Assembly (NCBI GenBank): GCA_040767195.1
Contig: JAXGPA010000004.1
Coordinates: 1 to 64,000 of the forward strand
Origin: Syntrophales bacterium
GTDB taxonomy: Bacteria; Desulfobacterota; Syntrophia; Syntrophales; UBA6807
Length of the DNA stretch: 64,000 nt
Direction of reading: 5' to 3'
Both the position numbers and the translations under genes were made by a program. Below are positions 9,869 to 60,831 of this stretch, piece after piece. Each line of letters opens with the position of its first letter. The first letter of the stretch is position 1. Under the pieces are notes generated by a model. That model was not told the origin of the DNA and made no database searches. It saw only the letters and a program-made list of their open reading frames with translations.

Positions 9869-11530
9869 CTAGTCCTTGAAGACCGCGCCGGTGCTGGCCG
9901 ACGTGACGAGCCTGGCGTAGCGGCCCAGGTAGCCTCCCCGGACGGGCGGTTCCCAGGGTTTCAGGGCCTTTTTCCGTTTTTCCATTTCCCTGGCCGTAAT
10001 TTTGAGGTCCAGCCGCCTTCCCGGAATGTCGATGGCGATCCGGTCCCCTTCCCGGACCAGGGCGAGGGGGCCCCCTTCCGCCGCTTCCGGCGAGATGTGG
10101 CCGATGGCCGCTCCCCGGGTGCCGCCGCTGAACCGCCCGTCGGTGAGAAGGGCCACCGAGGTGTCGAGCCCCATGCCGGCGATGGCCGACGTGGGGGCGA
10201 GCATCTCCCGCATCCCCGGGCCGCCCCTGGGGCCCTCGTAACGGATGACAATCACGTCCCCGGGCTTGATCTCCCCCCCGAGGATCGCCTGGATCGCCTT
10301 CTCCTCGCCGTCGAAGACCCGGGCCCGGCCCTCGTTGACCATCATTTCCGGGGCCACAGCGGACTGCTTCACCACCCCTCCGTCGGGTGCTAGATTACCC
10401 CGGAGAATGGCGATGCCGCCCTCGGGCGAGTAAGGGGTTTTCGGGCTTCGAATCACCTCGCGGTCCCGGACCGCCGCGTTTTTCAGGTTTCTTTTCACAG
10501 GCAAAGCCGTCGCGGTCAGGCAGTCCCCCCGGATCAGGCCCAGTGCCTCGATTTCCTTCATCACGGCGGGGATGCCGCCGGCCCGGTGAAGGTCCTCCAG
10601 GTGGTGGGGCCCGGCGGGGCTCAGGTGGCAGAGGTTGGGCGTCTTCGCGCTGATCTCGTTGAAAAGGTCGAGATCGAGGACGATACCCGCCTCCCGGGCG
10701 ATGGCGGGGAGGTGAAGAACCGTGTTGGTGGAGCACCCGAGGGCCATGTCCACGGCGATGGCATTCCGGAAAGCGTCGGGGGTGGCGATGTCCCGGGGGC
10801 GGATGTCCCTTTTCAGGAGCGTCATGACGGCCATCCCGGCCTGCTTCGCCAGGCGGCGCCGGGCCGCGTGAACGGCGGGAATGGTCCCGTTTCCCGGAAG
10901 GCCGAGGCCGATGGCCTCGGTGAGGCAGTTCATGGAATTGGCGGTGAACATGCCCGAACAGGACCCGCAGCCCGGGCAGGCCTCGTCTTCCAGGGCCGCC
11001 ATGTCCCGTTGCCGGAGCTTGCCCGCCTTGACCTTTCCCACGCCCTCGAAAACGCTGATGAGGTCCACCGTGGCGCCCCCGGCGAGACCGGCCATCATGG
11101 GGCCGCCGCTCACGACAACCGTCGGGATGTTGAGGCGGAGCGCCGCCATGAGCATGCCCGGGACGATCTTGTCGCAGTTGGTCACCATGACGAGGCCGTC
11201 GAAGGGGTGGGCCATGGCCATGATCTCGATGGAATCGGCGATGAGTTCCCGGCTCGCCAGGGAGTATTTCATGCCTTCGTGGCCCATGGCGATGCCGTCG
11301 CAGACGCCGATGGCGGGAAATTCCACGGGCGTGCCCCCGGCCATGCGGATGCCCGCCTTGGCATCCTGGGCCAGCAGGCCGAGGTGGACATGGCCGGGGA
11401 TGATCTCGTTGGCCGAGTTGACCACCCCGATGAGGGGTCTCCCCAGTTCCTCGTCGGTGTAGCCCATGGCCTTGAACAACGACCGGTGGGGGGCCCGCTC
11501 GAGGCCCTTTTTCATGATGTCGCTTCTCAT
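9869..11530 (-). CDS. ilvD: dihydroxy-acid dehydratase
   Basis: [84 protein letters not shown]. Confidence 0.96.
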
Positions 11531-11738: not shown

Positions 11739-12791
11739 CTATTTTTTCCGCCGTTCCGGTCTCAATTCCCGGAGAACCGCGCCGGCCTGCCACATCTCCA
11801 TGTTCCGCATCTCCGACAGTTCCCGGTCCAGGCGTTCCCGGTAGTCCGGGGCGCTGTTCGCTTCCAGGACGATGGCCGTCTCCTTCCCCGTTTTCACCCG
11901 GTCGTAGAGTTCGTCGAACACGGGGAGCACGGCCTCCCGGAACCGCCCCTTCCAGTCCAGGGCGCCCCGCTGGGCGGTGGTGCTGCAGTTGGCGTACATC
12001 CAGTCCATGCCGTTCTGGCCCACCAGGCCGATGAGGCTCTGGGTCAGTTCCTCCACCGTCTCGTTGAAGGCCTCGCTGGGGCTGTGCCCGTTCTTCCGGA
12101 GCGTCTGGTACTGGGCCTCCATGATGCCCGCCAGGGCCCCCATGAGAACGCCCCGCTCACCCGTCAGGTCGCTGTAGACCTCGTTCTCGAAGGTCGTCGG
12201 GAAGAGGTAACCGGAACCGATGGCGATGCCCAGGGCGACGGCCCGCTCCTTCGCCCGGCCCGTGGCGTCCTGAAAAACGGCGACGCTCGAGTTGATGCCG
12301 CTCCCGGCGATGAAGTTCGCCCGCACCGTCCGGCCCGCCCCCTTGGGGGCCACGAGAATGACGTCAACGTCCGCCGGGGGGACGACGCCCGTCAGTTCCT
12401 TGTAGGTGATGGAAAACCCGTGGGAGAAATAGAGGGCCTTCCCTCTCGTCAAAAAAGGCTTGACCTTCGGCCACAGGGCCTTCTGTCCCGCGTCGGAAAG
12501 CATGTACTGGAGGATGGTGCCCCGCTTCGCCGCCTCCTCGATGGGAAAAAGGGTCTCCCCGGGGACGAAGCCGTCATCGAGGGCCTTCTTCCAGGTGGCC
12601 CCGCCCTCGCGCTGGCCGATGATGACCCGGACCCCGTTGTCCCGGAGATTCTGGGCCTGTCCCTGCCCCTGGACGCCGTAACCCAGGACGGCCACCGTCT
12701 CGTCCTTCAGGACTTCCCGGGCCTTTTCAAGAGGAAACTCTTCCGCCGTGATGACTTCTTCCTCGATGCCGCCGATGGTGATTTTTGCCAT
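11739..12791 (-). CDS. ilvC: ketol-acid reductoisomerase
   Basis: LGYGVQGQGQAQNLRD, FSHGF, VAPKG, SDLTGERGVLMG, EAFNETVEE, MDWMYANCSTTAQRGALDW; AAGGAG RBS. Confidence 0.95.
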   Translation of the reverse strand: MAKITIGGIEEEVITAEEFPLEKAREVLKDETVAVLGYGVQGQGQAQNLRDNGVRVIIGQREGGATWKKALDDGFVPGETLFPIEEAAKRGTILQYMLSDAGQKALWPKVKPFLTRGKALYFSHGFSITYKELTGVVPPADVDVILVAPKGAGRTVRANFIAGSGINSSVAVFQDATGRAKERAVALGIAIGSGYLFPTTFENEVYSDLTGERGVLMGALAGIMEAQYQTLRKNGHSPSEAFNETVEELTQSLIGLVGQNGMDWMYANCSTTAQRGALDWKGRFREAVLPVFDELYDRVKTGKETAIVLEANSAPDYRERLDRELSEMRNMEMWQAGAVLRELRPERRKK

Positions 12792-12946
12792 GGATTTTCT
12801 CCTTTGTGAATGTCTTTGAATGCCTGTCCCGCGCACGTCAAAAAAGCGGGTCCGAAGGATCGGCCTGCGAGGTCCGCCGTCCCGGCGGTAACCCGAAGGG
12901 CCGGAGGGGACCCGACGGCCTGCCGGTGGAACCCTCGACCACCGCC

Positions 12947-13423
12947 CTACCTGAGAAAAATAACGCCGGACCGGCTCAAGTCCTCGATTCCCAGGGGCGT
13001 AAGCCCCTTCAGGACCCAGTCGATCTCCTCGAGGGTGCCGGTGACCTCGAGAATACAGTGATCCGGCTCCATCCGAAGGGTCCGGCAGTGAAAATTCTCG
13101 ATATCTTTCTTAATCTTTTCCCGGTTTTCCTCCCGGAAGGGGATCCGGACGAGGACCATTTCCCTGAGAATGGTCCTGTCGTTCCCGGCGATGTTGAATT
13201 CCAGCACATCGACGAGTTTCCGGAGCTGTTTTTCGATCTTGCTCACCGTGGCCGTGTTTCCCTTCGTCACCAGGGTGATCTTGGTCATGTCCGGGTTGAG
13301 GGTCACGTTGGCGCTGATGGATTCGATATTGAAGCCCCTGCCGCTGAAGATCCCGGCGATCCGGGCCAGCACGTCGGGCTTGTTGTTCACCAGAAGGGTC
13401 ATCTTGTGTTCTTTGATTTCCAT
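12947..13423 (-). CDS. ilvN: acetolactate synthase small (regulatory) subunit, copy 1, with Asp at the Gly14-equivalent site
   Basis: ACT domain NNKPDVLARIAGIFSGRGFNIESI, KQLRKLVDV, REMVLV, SRSG. Confidence 0.9.
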   Translation of the reverse strand: MEIKEHKMTLLVNNKPDVLARIAGIFSGRGFNIESISANVTLNPDMTKITLVTKGNTATVSKIEKQLRKLVDVLEFNIAGNDRTILREMVLVRIPFREENREKIKKDIENFHCRTLRMEPDHCILEVTGTLEEIDWVLKGLTPLGIEDLSRSGVIFLR

Positions 13424-13440: not shown

Positions 13441-15144
13441 CTATCCTTTTTTACGTCCCAGGTCCATCTCCGTCAGGGAGGCACCGGGCCCCACCATGGG
13501 GTAGACCCCCTCCTCGGGGTCGACGGCCATGTCCATGAAGACCGGCCCCGGGGTTTCGAGCCCCTGTTTCAGGACCGCTTCCATCTCCTCCGGCCGGGTC
13601 GCCCGGAGCCCCGTGGCCCCGTAGGCCTGGGCGAGTTTCACGAAATCGGGGACCTGGCTGATGTTCGTGTGGGAATACCGCCGCCCGTAGAAGATCTCCT
13701 GCCATTGCCGGACCATGCCGAGGAACCCGTTGTTCAGGATGACGACCTTCACGGGAATGTTGTAGTTCACCACCGTGGCCAGCTCCTGGATGTTCATCTG
13801 GATGCTCCCGTCGCCGGCGATGTCCAGGACCGTCCGGTCCGGGCAGGCCACCTGGGCCCCGATGGCGGCGGGAAAGCCGTACCCCATGGTCCCCAGGCCC
13901 CCCGACGTGAGAAACTGGTTGGGCCGGTTGAAACGGTAGAACTGGGCCGCCCACATCTGGTTCTGCCCCACCTCGGTGGCCACCACGGCCTCGCCGCCGG
14001 TGAGCCGGTAAAGGGTTTCGATGACGCACTGGGGCTTGATCATGTCCCCGGAATCGTAGCAGAGCGGGGCGTATTCCCGCCACTTGTCGATCTGCCCGAG
14101 CCACGCGCCCAGATCATCCGCGGACAGGACGTTCTTCTCCTGCTCGAGCATCTGGGTCAGCTGGTGGAGGGCCGTCCGGCTGTCGCTCACGATGGGGAGG
14201 TCGACGAGGACGTTCTTGTTGATCGATGCGGGGTCGATGTCGATGTGAACGATTTTCGCCTGGGTGGCGAAATCGGAAAGCCGGCCCGTCACCCGGTCGT
14301 CGAACCGGACCCCGATGGCGATGATGAGATCGGCATGGCTCACGGCCATGTTGGCGTAGTAGGTTCCGTGCATCCCCGGCATGCCGAGCCACAGGGGGTC
14401 CGTTCCCGGGTAGGCCCCCAGCCCCATGAGGGTCGAGGTGATGGGAATGCCCGTGGCCCGGACGAATGTCCGGAGCTCCTCGGAGGCCCGCCCTAAAATG
14501 ATGCCCCCGCCGGTGAGAATGACGGGGCGCTTCGCTTTCCGGAGCATTCCGACGACCTGCTGCAGGGCCTCCGTGTCGGGAAGATAGGAGGGCTCCCGAA
14601 GGCAGGCTGAAGGGATTCCCGAGGGCTCGTAGACCGCCGTGCCCTGGGCGACGTCCTTGGGAAGGTCCACCAGGACCGGGCCGGGACGGCCGCACCGGGA
14701 GAGGTAGAAAGCCTCCTTGACAGTCCTGGCGAGGTCCGCCGTCCGCCGGACGATGTAGTTGTGCTTCGTGATGGGCCGCGTGATGCCCGTGATGTCCGCC
14801 TCCTGGAAGGCGTCGGACCCGATGAGGGCCGTGGAGACCTGGCCGGTGAAGACGACGATGGGGATGGAGTCCATGTAGGCCGTGGCGATGCCCGTGACCG
14901 TGTTGGTCGCCCCGGGACCGGATGTCACCAGGCAGACCCCCGTTTTACCCGACGCCCGGGCATACCCGTCCGCCGCGTGGGTGGCCCCCTGCTCGTGGCG
15001 GACAAGGATGTGCCGGATCTCGCCCTTGTGCAGCTCGTCGTAAATATCGAGAACGACACCGCCGGGATACCCGAAAATGGTGTCCACACCTTCCTCAAGA
15101 AGGGCCTTGATGAGTATCTGCGCTCCCTTCAGTTCCACGTTCAC
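13441..15144 (-). CDS. ilvB: acetolactate synthase large subunit, copy 1 (Ile-attenuated)
   Basis: FGYPGG, RHEQGATHAADGYAR, TSGPGATN, GRPGPVLVDLPKD, RFDDRVTG, SGGLGTMG, GDGS...NNGFLGMVRQWQ; GTG start after AGGAGG. Confidence 0.95.
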   Translation of the reverse strand: MNVELKGAQILIKALLEEGVDTIFGYPGGVVLDIYDELHKGEIRHILVRHEQGATHAADGYARASGKTGVCLVTSGPGATNTVTGIATAYMDSIPIVVFTGQVSTALIGSDAFQEADITGITRPITKHNYIVRRTADLARTVKEAFYLSRCGRPGPVLVDLPKDVAQGTAVYEPSGIPSACLREPSYLPDTEALQQVVGMLRKAKRPVILTGGGIILGRASEELRTFVRATGIPITSTLMGLGAYPGTDPLWLGMPGMHGTYYANMAVSHADLIIAIGVRFDDRVTGRLSDFATQAKIVHIDIDPASINKNVLVDLPIVSDSRTALHQLTQMLEQEKNVLSADDLGAWLGQIDKWREYAPLCYDSGDMIKPQCVIETLYRLTGGEAVVATEVGQNQMWAAQFYRFNRPNQFLTSGGLGTMGYGFPAAIGAQVACPDRTVLDIAGDGSIQMNIQELATVVNYNIPVKVVILNNGFLGMVRQWQEIFYGRRYSHTNISQVPDFVKLAQAYGATGLRATRPEEMEAVLKQGLETPGPVFMDMAVDPEEGVYPMVGPGASLTEMDLGRKKG

Positions 15145-15188: not shown

Positions 15189-15220
15189 AAAAAAAAACCG
15201 CTACCCTCGGGGTAACGGTT
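15189..15220 (-). terminator. attenuator terminator upstream of ilvB copy 1
   Basis: AACCGTTACCC-CGA-GGGTAGCGGTT stem running into a 9-nt U tract. Confidence 0.88.
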
Positions 15221-15245
15221 CCTGTTTCGTCCTCTCGCCGGAAGG

Positions 15246-15335
15246 CTAAACCATCACCCCGCCCCTTCTGAAGGGAATAATTATACCGATGATCGCAATT
15301 TCCAACTGCTTCGGGGATGGGGAAAACACTGCCAT
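15246..15335 (-). CDS. Ile-rich attenuator leader peptide MAVFSPSPKQLEIAIIGIIIPFRRGGVMV
   Basis: 29 aa, absent from the ORF track; 6 Ile in 8 codons; its 3' end is complementary to the 5' arm of the downstream terminator. Confidence 0.85.
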   Translation of the reverse strand: MAVFSPSPKQLEIAIIGIIIPFRRGGVMV

Positions 15336-15404: not shown

Positions 15405-15905
15405 TCAGGCCGGGCCTCCCTTCTTTTCCTTGGGCAGTGCGATGATGCCCGTTCTCGCCGCTTCGCGGATGCCCAGGTCCCGAAAATACTGGAGAAGCGT
15501 TTCCGTTTCCTCGCTCGTCCCCACGGCCTGAAAAACGGCGTAATCGTCTTTCATGAAAATCAGCTTGCCGTTGAAAAGCTCCATGGCCTTGAGAATATCG
15601 GCCCGGCGCTCCTGGGGAAAATCCAGGCCCAGGAGGGCCACTTCCCGCTGCAGGGACCGGGACGGGGCGAGTTCCTCTACCTCGATGACGTCCACGAGCC
15701 TGTCCAGCTGCTTCCGGACCTTGTCGGTGAAATTCGAGTTGGCCCGGCTCATGAGGGTGATCCGGGACGTGTCCGGGTCGAGGGTGGGCGCCACGCAGAG
15801 GCTTTCGATGTTGTAACCGAGCCTTCCGAAAATCCCGGACACCCGGGAGAGAACGCCCGGCTTGTTCTGAACGAGGAGTGACAGGATGTGTTCTTCGCCA
15901 TTCAT
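15405..15905 (-). CDS. ilvN: acetolactate synthase small (regulatory) subunit, copy 2, with the canonical Gly
   Basis: QNKPGVLSRVSGIFGRLGYNIESL, KQLDRLVDVIEV, REVALL, ARTG. Confidence 0.9.
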   Translation of the reverse strand: MNGEEHILSLLVQNKPGVLSRVSGIFGRLGYNIESLCVAPTLDPDTSRITLMSRANSNFTDKVRKQLDRLVDVIEVEELAPSRSLQREVALLGLDFPQERRADILKAMELFNGKLIFMKDDYAVFQAVGTSEETETLLQYFRDLGIREAARTGIIALPKEKKGGPA

Positions 15906-16076
15906 TGTACTCGCGTCTCCTTTTGCTTGCTCATCGTCTTGTGATAGGGTCTTTTACCGCCCCCGCCATGGGGGGCGCGGCGACGCTTCGAAACCGGTGT
16001 TTCCACCGGTACGGACCCGGGACCGGTCCGCTCCCGCCCGGAACCCAAGGCGGGGCGGCCCTTCGGGCCGCCGCCG

Positions 16077-17753
16077 TCAGTCCGATCTCCCGTAGATCAT
16101 TTCCATGTTCGATTTTCCGGGCGGGATAATGGGATAGACATAGTCCCCGGGAGGGACCATGACTTCCAGGAGATAGGGCCCGTCACTTGCGGCGAGGCGC
16201 TCGATGGCCCCCTCGGGCTTTTCCGCCCCGACCCGCTCCGCTTCCAGGCCGAAGCCCCGGGCCACGGCGACGATGTCCGTTTTTTCCCCGAGCTGGCAGG
16301 CGCTGAGCCGGGACCCGTAAAAAAGGTCCTGGATCTGGCGGATCATCCCCAGGTGGCCATTGTTGAAGACGATGATCTTGACGGGCACCTGGTAATAGCT
16401 GATGGTGGCCAGCTCCTGGATGTTCATGAAAAACCCGCCGTCGCCGGTGAAAGACACGACGTTCCGCTTCGGGTTTCCCACCTTGGCCCCGATGGAGGCG
16501 GGAAGGCTGAAGCCCATGGTCCCCATGCCGCCGCTGGTGAGGAGCCCCCGGGGGGACTTCGATTTCCAGGACCGGACCGTCCAGATCTGGTTCAGTCCCA
16601 CGTCGGCGACGGCGATGGCCGTCGGGGACAGGGCCTCCTGGACCAGGCCGATGAGCCGCCCGGGCAGGCCGCAGCCGTTGTAGCTGTTCTTCGCCTCCAG
16701 GGACTCCCGCTCCTTCTGGATCCTGTCTTTCCAGTCGCCCCTTTCCTTTTCGTCGACGAGGCCGATGAGCCCGGAAAGGGCTTTCCGGATGTCGCAGACG
16801 AGAGCCAGGTCCGCCTTGATGTTCTTGCCGATGGACGTGGGGTCGATGTCGATCTGGGCGATCGTCGCCAGGGGAGCGAACTCCTCCACCTTGGAGGTGC
16901 TCCGGTCGGTGAAACGGGTCCCCACGGCGAGGATGAAGTCGGACTGGTGGATCATCCGGTTGGCCAGTTCGAACCCATGGGTGCCGATGAATCCCAGGTT
17001 GAGGCCGTTGGCGATGCACACGGCTCCCACGCCCATCATGGTGCTCACGAAGGGGATGTTCCCCCGTTCGATGAGTTCCGTGATGAGCTGGCAGGCACCG
17101 CTGAGCTTGACGCCCCCGCCGATGATGAGGATGGGCCTTTCCGCCTGGTTCAGGGCCTGGGCGATGCGGTTCAGGATGCCTTCGTCCAGGGCGTGGCCGT
17201 TCCCCGTCTTCTTCATGGCCGGTTCCTCCGGCCTGATTTCCGCCTCGGGGCAGCGGCCCGCCAGGACATTCCGCGGAAGGTCCACGAGGACCGGCCCCGG
17301 CCGGCCCTGCTTGGCCAGGGAAAAAGCCTGCTTGAGGGTCGTCCGCATGTCCCTGGGGTCCCGGACAAGGAAGCTGTGCTTCGTGATGGGCATGGTGATC
17401 CCGATGATGTCCGTCTCCTGGAAGGCGTCGGTCCCCAGGAGGTCCGTGGGAACCTGGCCCGTGAGGGCCACCACGGGGGAGGAGTCCATGTAGGCCGTGG
17501 CGATCCCCGTGACGAGGTTCGTCGCCCCCGGCCCCGAGGTAGCCAGGCAGACCCCCACCTTTCCCGTGGCCCGGGCGTAACCGTCGGCGGCATGGGCGGC
17601 GGCCTGCTCGTGACGCATCAGGTAATGCCGGATCGTGTGGTCGATGAGTCCGTCATGAATGGGCAGGGTATTTGCCCCGGGATAGCCGAAGATGGCGTCC
17701 ACCCCTTCTTCCTTCAACGTCTCCAGAAGGATCTGTGCACCGTTTCTTTCCAT
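16077..17753 (-). CDS. ilvB: acetolactate synthase large subunit, copy 2 (Val-attenuated)
   Basis: FGYPGA, RHEQAAAHAADGYAR, TSGPGATN, GRPGPVLVDLP, SGGMGTMG, GDGG...NNGHLGMIRQIQ; AGGAG RBS before ATG 17753. Confidence 0.94.
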   Translation of the reverse strand: MERNGAQILLETLKEEGVDAIFGYPGANTLPIHDGLIDHTIRHYLMRHEQAAAHAADGYARATGKVGVCLATSGPGATNLVTGIATAYMDSSPVVALTGQVPTDLLGTDAFQETDIIGITMPITKHSFLVRDPRDMRTTLKQAFSLAKQGRPGPVLVDLPRNVLAGRCPEAEIRPEEPAMKKTGNGHALDEGILNRIAQALNQAERPILIIGGGVKLSGACQLITELIERGNIPFVSTMMGVGAVCIANGLNLGFIGTHGFELANRMIHQSDFILAVGTRFTDRSTSKVEEFAPLATIAQIDIDPTSIGKNIKADLALVCDIRKALSGLIGLVDEKERGDWKDRIQKERESLEAKNSYNGCGLPGRLIGLVQEALSPTAIAVADVGLNQIWTVRSWKSKSPRGLLTSGGMGTMGFSLPASIGAKVGNPKRNVVSFTGDGGFFMNIQELATISYYQVPVKIIVFNNGHLGMIRQIQDLFYGSRLSACQLGEKTDIVAVARGFGLEAERVGAEKPEGAIERLAASDGPYLLEVMVPPGDYVYPIIPPGKSNMEMIYGRSD

Positions 17754-17823: not shown

Positions 17824-17860
17824 AAATAAAAAAGCCGCGGGCCTTTCGGGGCCCGCGGCT
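17824..17860 (-). terminator. attenuator terminator T1 upstream of ilvB copy 2
   Basis: 11-bp stem AGCCGCGGGCC-CCGAAA-GGCCCGCGGCT followed by TTTTTATTT. Confidence 0.9.
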
Positions 17861-17880
17861 CCTTTTCGATCTAACGTTTT

Positions 17881-17967
17881 CTAAGGCAGAGCAGCGGTCC
17901 CCGTCTTTACGACGACTACGACTACAGCCACGGCTACCGTGCTTGCCAGGGAATGTCTGTCAGCCAT
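17881..17967 (-). CDS. Val-rich attenuator leader peptide MADRHSLASTVAVAVVVVVVKTGTAALP
   Basis: 28 aa, absent from the ORF track; 8 Val codons, 6 of them consecutive; AGGTG RBS; 3' part complementary to the T1 5' arm. Confidence 0.9.
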   Translation of the reverse strand: MADRHSLASTVAVAVVVVVVKTGTAALP

Positions 17968-60375: not shown

Positions 60376-60831
60376 TCAATACTTCATGTAGTGGAAGGGC
60401 TCAACCGCCGACAGGGCCTCGGCGCTCAGCGTTTCGAACCCCCCCTTTTTGAGGACGTCCTGGGTTTTTTCCATCTGGTCCACGTCGACGACGAAAACGG
60501 CCCGTTTCCAGCTCTCCAGGACGAACCCGTAAGCATTTTCCACGTTGATCCCCTCCCTCGCCAGAAGCTGGATCAGCTTGTCGAGGCCCCCGGGTCGGTC
60601 ATCGATGAGAACGGCCACGACCTCCTTGAGGCTCACCGTCAGGCCTTCCTTCTCAAGGGCCCGAAGGGCGCCCCGGGGATCATCCACGAGGAGGTTCACC
60701 ACCCCGAAAGCATCGGACGTGGCGATGGTGATGGCCCGGATGTTGATCTTCTCCCGGGCCAGGATTCCCGTGACCTTGGCGATTCGCCCCGGCTTGTTTT
60801 CGGCGAAGACGGACAGCTGATAGGCGATCAT
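60376..60831 (-). CDS. ACT-domain protein (PaaK-associated)
   Basis: QLSVFAENKPGR, INIRA, DRPGGL, GINVENAY. Confidence 0.9.
   Translation of the reverse strand: MIAYQLSVFAENKPGRIAKVTGILAREKINIRAITIATSDAFGVVNLLVDDPRGALRALEKEGLTVSLKEVVAVLIDDRPGGLDKLIQLLAREGINVENAYGFVLESWKRAVFVVDVDQMEKTQDVLKKGGFETLSAEALSAVEPFHYMKY

Follow-up and report, generated by a model that had tools for sequence, protein, structure and literature searches.

An order-wide aspartate at the feedback glycine of a Syntrophales acetohydroxyacid synthase subunit and a possible isoleucine-tuned pocket

Introduction

The 64,000-nucleotide stretch of DNA analysed here (the window; positions 1 to 64,000 of contig JAXGPA010000004.1, Syntrophales bacterium, assembly GCA_040767195.1) encodes two tandem acetohydroxyacid synthase (AHAS) isozymes, IlvB1-IlvN1 and IlvB2-IlvN2. 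The regulatory subunit IlvN1 has aspartate at residue 17, in the column of glycine 14 (Gly14) of Escherichia coli IlvH, and the locus raises the question of what this change does to feedback when it is the natural state of the protein. The original prediction, made from the sequence, was that IlvN1 is a naturally feedback-resistant subunit that may be useful for strain engineering.

Asp17 is confirmed as a real residue, and the comparisons described below mark it as an ancient state fixed across the order rather than a strain variant. For its effect, even odds are given to the reading that IlvB1-IlvN1 is an isoleucine-dedicated AHAS, likely blind to valine, whose pocket has been retuned to isoleucine rather than put out of use. 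A broader proposal is held slightly more tentatively. It states that the Syntrophales AHAS subunit would bind amino acids although Asp replaces the 'invariant' ACT glycine, that Ala35/Thr44 versus Val35/Ser44 (IlvH numbering) would toggle it between isoleucine and valine, and that this toggle would have flipped more than once together with the attenuator, giving an isoleucine-feedback AHAS parallel to a valine-feedback AHAS. The features of the regulatory subunits are as follows, in window coordinates and with lengths in amino acids (aa).

12947..13423, minus strand: ilvN1, 158-aa two-ACT regulatory subunit of the Asp type
13373..13375, minus strand: Asp17 of IlvN1 (GAC), IlvH Gly14 column
13307..13312, minus strand: Ala38-Asn39 of IlvN1, IlvH Val35-Ala36 columns; Ala38 tracks Ile leaders
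13283..13285, minus strand: Thr47 of IlvN1, IlvH Ser44 column, the second leader-tracking column
15405..15905, minus strand: ilvN2, regulatory subunit whose valine pocket is canonical (Gly17, Val38, Ala39, Ser47)

The aspartate codon and its distribution

The plus-strand letters gtc at 13373-13375 read as the codon GAC on the minus strand, which is residue 17 of the 158-aa open reading frame (ORF) 12947-13423 (minus strand), ilvN1. Alignment to 2f1f and to ilvH of NC_000913.3 places this residue in the column of E. coli Gly14, where the paralogue IlvN2 has Gly17 (GGC, 15855-15857), a one-base difference. The Asp at the Gly14-equivalent position was thus correctly identified in the original prediction. 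IlvN1 belongs to the IlvH/IlvN family (129.8 bits against TIGR00119, cut-off 56.9), and its predicted model (predicted local distance difference test score, pLDDT, 88) has an N-terminal ACT and a C-terminal ACT-like fold, with E. coli IlvH 2f1f as the best fold match (template modelling score, TM, 0.86).

The codon is bridged without a variant letter in contigs of six of eight runs (X1, X3, X7, X4, X6 and X13, from four studies, one of which may itself be the source of the assembly); run X5 has no long piece over the codon, and run X9 has a piece with one differing letter, the position of which was not located. Among the best 120 of 2842 protein matches (50-99% identity), one is without the site region and all 119 informative proteins have Asp. 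Together with the order-wide pattern matches, these results leave next to no chance that the residue arose by a sequencing error or is confined to one strain.

The Asp is also clade-conserved. A degenerate pattern for the Asp column matched at least 119 stretches in a species collection, and among the matches listed 118 are ilvN and one is a chance match. Their order labels are Syntrophales (78), Syntrophobacterales (2), none (38) and Rhodobacterales (1, the chance match). In a sample of the phylum the pattern occurs in 15 of 15 Syntrophales genomes and in 0 of 386 others. As a control on outgroup loci, the Gly version of the pattern matched 62 of 70 and the Asp version 0 of 70, and all 72 outgroup proteins read directly have Gly at the site. 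A set of the 150 best representatives (50% identity) holds 179 domains, of which 172 cover the site (154 Gly, 11 Asp, 5 Asn, 1 Arg, 1 Ser), and all 11 Asp domains bear the motif of the Syntrophales Asp clade.

In the regulatory-subunit tree (72 of 168 rows after thinning, with two divergent outgroup rows barred), the Asp-type proteins form a single clade with support of 99/99. This clade is sister to the order's Gly-type paralogues at 91/81, a rough value with the bootstrap unsettled, and an earlier small-subunit tree gave 0.98 for the same link; the two types are likely sister paralogues. A 60-row catalytic tree with a midpoint root does not place IlvB2, a long branch, beside IlvB1. Because this tree does not confirm the sister link, it is the small-subunit trees that carry the case for an intra-order duplication.

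An ilvN gene is present in 113 of 121 genomes of the order. Among 57 single-copy genomes, 53 were read, comprising 47 with Asp/Val38, 3 with Asp/Ala38 and 3 with Gly only. Loci were examined in 54 multi-copy genomes, and where both copies were read (35 genomes), 34 have Asp/Ala38 plus Gly/Val38 and one has Asp/Val38 plus Gly. Mapped onto an RpoB tree (30 genomes), the Asp-only state requires 6 changes, and a single clade of Asp-only genomes is rejected (approximately unbiased test, p-AU 3e-5); two-copy genomes occur on either side of the deepest split that the tree resolves. The simplest reading of this pattern would be that the Gly-type pair was lost or replaced repeatedly. Four genomes that are 92-100% complete, G009 of the same genus and G017, G035 and G051 of family f9, have no ilvN match, and citramalate synthase is present in them.

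Catalytic partners

The genes are arranged on the minus strand in the order ilvB2, ilvN2, ilvB1, ilvN1, ilvC, ilvD. The genome (98.8% complete) encodes exactly two catalytic and two regulatory AHAS subunits above the family cut-offs. The catalytic subunits are listed here.

16077..17753, minus strand: ilvB2, AHAS catalytic subunit in which Ile474 (codon 16332-16334) replaces Trp; predicted acetolactate (Val/Leu) isozyme
13441..15144, minus strand: ilvB1, AHAS catalytic subunit in which Trp481 is kept (codon 13702-13704); predicted acetohydroxybutyrate (Ile) isozyme

The ilvB1 gene (820.6 bits, cut-off 538.35) adjoins ilvN1 and ends 17 bases upstream of it. In the alignment Trp481 of IlvB1 corresponds to Ile in IlvB2, Trp in E. 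coli IlvI and Gln in E. coli IlvB. This Trp gives the preference for 2-ketobutyrate, which a Trp-to-Leu change abolishes (PMC5727371). IlvB1 would accordingly be expected to prefer 2-ketobutyrate and IlvB2 pyruvate.

Asp-type subunits lie downstream of a Trp-type ilvB in all 129 determinable cases (33 further cases were undetermined), and Syntrophales Gly-type subunits lie downstream of a non-Trp ilvB in 59 of 59 determinable cases (one undetermined). The outgroups combine Gly with Trp in 60 of 65 determinable cases, which is likely the ancestral state. The Asp/Trp and Gly/non-Trp pairing traces to one ancestral split and does not represent independent events. Judged from these pairings, a division of labour between IlvB1-IlvN1 and IlvB2-IlvN2 is highly probable.

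IlvB2 also departs elsewhere from residues that IlvB1 has in common with the two E. coli enzymes (Met260 to Thr, Gln394 to Leu, Met397 to Ile and Asp282 to Thr, in IlvB1 numbering), and with these departures and its long branch its substrate range may differ from that of standard AHAS. Other arrangements occur in two further groups. In family f28 (L324-L326, L439-L441, L451-L453) two different ilvN genes, of Val35 and Gly35 types, lie behind a non-Trp ilvB, and a separate Trp-type ilvB adjoins ilvC without an ilvN of its own. In outgroup genome G140 (L349 / L449) a Trp-type ilvB-ilvN pair has recently been duplicated in tandem, and both ilvN copies score alike.

Leader peptides and predicted attenuators

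Each catalytic gene is preceded by a short ORF with a run of codons for one branched-chain amino acid, followed by a hairpin and U-run, which is the layout of a leader-peptide attenuator.

17881..17967, minus strand: Val leader ORF of 28 aa, including a stretch of 11 codons with 8 for Val; predicted to be the attenuator leader of ilvB2-ilvN2
17826..17865, minus strand: Val-side predicted terminator, GC-rich hairpin plus U-run, -30.6 kcal/mol; its 5' arm could alternatively pair with the Val leader end (-24.2)
15246..15335, minus strand: Ile leader ORF of 29 aa, including a stretch of 8 codons with 6 for Ile; predicted to be the attenuator leader of ilvB1-ilvN1
15190..15223, minus strand: Ile-side predicted terminator, hairpin plus U-run, -19.1 kcal/mol; its 5' arm could alternatively pair with the Ile leader end (-24.0)

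Among 23401 short ATG ORFs in the whole genome, 14 contain at least 6 of one branched-chain residue in 10, and the Ile and Val leaders are the sole Ile-run and Val-run short ORFs with a T-run behind them. Both leaders recur in relatives. A hairpin and T-run lie behind 95 of 95 distinct leaders of the order, a count made without a null control. The mean energy of the duplex between leader end and terminator arm is -17.0 kcal/mol for Ile leaders (35) versus -9.8 when shuffled, and -18.0 kcal/mol for Val leaders (60) versus -11.8 when shuffled. Folding of the Val leader region has a z of -2.5 relative to shuffles. The leaders would attenuate transcription in response to Ile-tRNA and Val-tRNA, respectively.

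The Rfam search gave five weak matches, none of which reached the gathering score. A leader search upstream of 20 outgroup regions and 10 further loci showed no Ile-run leader. In family f18 the tandem begins with a single leader, mixed for Ile and Val, and ilvB1 has no leader of its own. The end of one RNA contig (X4) falls at 15216, within the Ile-side terminator; as a lone contig it was not counted as evidence.

Pocket columns that track the leader

The leaders permit a comparison of transcriptional control with the residues of the subunit pocket. Asp-type loci were typed by leader codons alone, giving 31 Ile and 39 Val loci; loci with too little upstream DNA, nine with weak or absent leaders (five of them from f18) and one tie were left out before typing. 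Across these 70 loci, two of the 158 columns of the regulatory subunit split perfectly by leader type. Column 38 (IlvH-35) has Ala with Ile leaders and Val with Val leaders, and column 47 (IlvH-44) has Thr with Ile leaders and Ser with Val leaders. No column of the catalytic subunit splits perfectly over the same loci. Column 38 corresponds to IlvH V35, which is listed as a valine-binding residue together with N11, N29, L9 and L16 (PMC11893703, citing Kaplun 2006). The change from Val to Ala at 38 would enlarge the side-chain pocket for isoleucine, and where the Gly-type twin is missing, the Asp-type enzyme with its Val leader and Val38/Ser47 pocket would act as a valine sensor.

A 33-row catalytic tree, built without the tracked columns, rejects a single clade for both leader groups (p-AU 4e-5 and 0.0014) and implies 2-3 changes; the one-clade test on the earlier 60-row tree gave p-AU 0.047. 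The single-copy family f20 lies inside an Ile-type clade of the catalytic tree (100/100) and has a Val leader. Of 30 conserved columns, f20 departs from the consensus of Ile-led loci at only three, which are 19 (IlvH L16), 38 and 47. Gene conversion from ilvN2 was considered as the source of Val38/Ser47 in f20 and rejected, as Asp-type residues are kept between and around both columns.

Comparable residues are found in Gly-type proteins. Two f47 genomes outside the order encode an unrelated Gly-type paralogue with I33/A35/T44 beside a Trp-type ilvB, the other ilvB having Phe, and in families f44 and f28 a subunit with Gly35 occurs where the genome encodes Trp as well as non-Trp ilvB genes.

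Other features of the window

Two further enzymes of the pathway lie downstream of ilvN1.

11739..12791, minus strand: ilvC, ketol-acid reductoisomerase, the common downstream enzyme
9869..11530, minus strand: ilvD, dihydroxy-acid dehydratase, named from sequence motifs and position

IlvC matches a fungal mitochondrial reductoisomerase, 7toc, at E 4e-138, and its best bacterial match reaches only 2e-60. Its identity is 60-84% within the order and 33-43% to most outgroup IlvC proteins, with IlvC of the same type (about 72% identity) in a few outgroup loci (f40, L317, L359). GC-rich inverted repeats occupy the gaps 15906-16076 (between ilvB2 and ilvN2) and 12792-12946 (between ilvN1 and ilvC) on the minus strand and are possible processing or termination sites; the latter ends in a T-run. 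At 60376-60831 (minus strand) a 151-aa stand-alone ACT-type protein with a weak TIGR00119 match is encoded directly downstream of a 503-aa ORF, which presumably encodes a protein resembling phenylacetate-CoA ligase, a name taken from its motifs.

Discussion

The central question is whether the Asp-type pocket is dead or still binds a ligand. In place of the canonical Gly14, Val35 and Ala36, IlvN1 has Asp17, Ala38 and Asn39, and it retains IlvH Asn11, Leu16, Asn29 and Ile30. Because IlvN1 is changed at both the Gly14 and the Ala36 columns, loss of valine inhibition is likely, and its valine insensitivity can be regarded as quite probable from the residues. The feedback-resistance claim is supported in this part. 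The simple form of the claim, a 'feedback-dead' subunit, is doubtful because the ligand residues are invariant and columns 38 and 47 track the leader. N11, P13, D14, V15, R18, N29 and I30 (IlvH numbering) are the same in all 162 Asp-type proteins, and a 152-sequence alignment with a mean identity of 51% has 12 invariant columns, nine of which fall at 11-30 or 46. The naturally insensitive E. coli IlvM is without N11, N29 and I30. Asp17 is accompanied by Asn or Asp at IlvH-36 (IlvN1 39) in 162 of 162 proteins, and this residue may compensate Asp17, so that the pocket would still bind an amino acid.

A number of observations weigh against a working pocket tuned to isoleucine, and several of them favour a blocked pocket, in which Asp17, with Asn39, would stop feedback as in engineered alleles and leave IlvB1-IlvN1 controlled by attenuation and citramalate synthase only, in convergence with E. 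coli AHAS II. Such a pocket amounts to the original prediction placed in the setting of two isozymes. The G14D change alone is sufficient for desensitisation, and position 323 of aspartokinase III, which we take to be the same ACT column as IlvH Gly14, offers a parallel. G323D desensitises the E. coli aspartokinase (PMC10464499), and mutations of Gly14, like Ala36Val, abolish valine feedback in IlvH (PMC6883840). Gly-to-Asp alleles are used in practice (PMC13158618; 10.1101/2020.12.01.406439, where G14D is combined with S17F). In E. coli IlvM the Gly14 column is occupied by Glu, and AHAS II is valine-insensitive and prefers 2-ketobutyrate (PMC5727371). IlvN1 resembles IlvM in combining an acidic residue at this column with a Trp-keeping partner, but it is not a single ACT with a degenerate pocket, having two domains in 158 aa and 26% identity to IlvM. 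The predominance of Gly among the representative domains and outgroup proteins (154/172 and 72/72) also fits a blocked pocket.

Control further upstream bears on the same point. Citramalate synthase (CimA) is an upstream step and is inhibited by isoleucine. CimA scores above its cut-off in 112 of the 121 Syntrophales genomes, in any isozyme state, so that isoleucine sensing at AHAS is not needed. IlvA is above the cut-off in 9 of 121 genomes. Neither a citramalate/isopropylmalate synthase homologue nor threonine dehydratase was found in the genome studied here, which may reflect a gap in the assembly or a true loss; a match to the synthase family exists in 119 of the order's 121 genomes. This absence had suggested that AHAS is the first isoleucine-controlled step, an idea rejected as a general reason on the CimA count, which includes the same genus.

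The remaining points against an isoleucine-tuned pocket concern the columns and the leaders. The switch at 38 and 47 rests on 2-3 events. Exceptions to the copy states exist, with Asp/Ala38 alone in G010, G011 and G103, the Gly type alone in G015, G033 and G108, and Asp/Val38 plus Gly in G049. Ala35 and Thr44 occur together in 13 Gly-type and 3 other domains of the 150 representatives, and may form a packing pair or a broad-specificity pocket. In f40, whose enzymes are single-copy, Ala35 goes with a mixed leader. On the transcriptional side, equilibrium folds with the ribosome-covered part removed still form the terminator without a flip, shuffled sequences fold as well as the Ile leader region (z -0.18), and a simple terminator scan did not list the Ile-side terminator (15190..15223).

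A blocked pocket, the main rival, is nevertheless considered the less probable reading. It would leave the ligand residues invariant in a site that binds nothing, columns 38 and 47 would follow the leader type through repeated switches, and the 47 of 53 read single-copy genomes with Asp/Val38 only would be without any AHAS feedback.

Alternatively, the threshold might have been raised, with the pocket still binding valine or all three branched-chain amino acids, Asp17 being compensated and Ala38/Thr47 broadening specificity. Corynebacterium glutamicum AHAS responds to all three branched-chain amino acids. That enzyme has Ser at the IlvH-35 column (PMC11893703), and the Ala35/Thr44 pairs in many Gly-type representatives and the f40 enzymes point in the same direction. 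This alternative appears improbable, as a valine-inhibited enzyme behind an Ile-only leader would recreate valine-induced isoleucine starvation, and the two-state tracking is strict in 70 of 70 loci. A different effector is more improbable still. Under that explanation Asp17 and the Asn or Asp at 39 would form a polar or acidic site, possibly for a cationic ligand, as the second Asp at IlvH-36 in 40 of 162 Asp-type proteins and the Gln-Asn at about these columns in aspartokinase ACT domains (read by eye) might suggest. The agreement of column 38 with the Ile or Val type of the leader points instead to branched-chain ligands.

Under the preferred reading, an isoleucine-tuned pocket, IlvB1-IlvN1 would make acetohydroxybutyrate for isoleucine, be induced by Ile-tRNA shortage, escape valine and be inhibited by isoleucine. 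IlvB2-IlvN2 would make acetolactate under valine control at both levels.

Several known systems share parts of this arrangement. E. coli IlvH resembles IlvN1 in its two-ACT fold, with 34% identity, in the retained N11, L16, N29 and I30 and in its gene position directly after a Trp-type catalytic subunit; IlvN1 differs in Asp for Gly14, Ala for Val35, Asn for Ala36 and Thr for Ser44, and in having its own Ile-run leader. Engineered alleles (IlvH G14D/S17F; IlvN G20D/V21D/M22F) have Asp at the same column, whereas in the IlvN1 clade it is natural and fixed (162/162), is always joined by Asn or Asp at IlvH-36 and sits in an otherwise conserved pocket. E. coli AHAS I (IlvBN) and AHAS II (IlvGM) likewise combine Trp and non-Trp catalytic subunits, each behind a leader peptide, and IlvM shares the acidic residue, but E. 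coli IlvM and IlvN are single-ACT proteins, whereas both subunits here are IlvH-type, in tandem and behind single-amino-acid leaders. The ilvL and ivbL attenuators have the same short control-codon ORF and terminator with a U-run, and alternative pairing, which is predicted for the present leaders; separate Ile-only and Val-only leaders on adjacent paralogues distinguish the locus described here. A literature search found no description of this two-isozyme system, with most subscription papers and supplements outside its scope, so earlier attenuator surveys may have noted the leaders.

The proposed value for strain engineering is small because alleles with the Gly-to-Asp change are in use already and isoleucine may inhibit the native enzyme; as a valine-resistant production part IlvN1 adds little. 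The significance lies in the biology of the family. Gly-to-Asp is the standard removal of AHAS feedback, yet a whole order fixes Asp and appears to keep and tune the pocket. Either the order has a natural suppressor, with the Asn or Asp at IlvH-36 as candidate, or roughly half of its genomes are without AHAS feedback. If IlvN1 is an isoleucine-selective subunit, it would provide a two-residue Val/Ile rule for ACT domains, which could serve biosensors and the annotation of ilvN paralogues.
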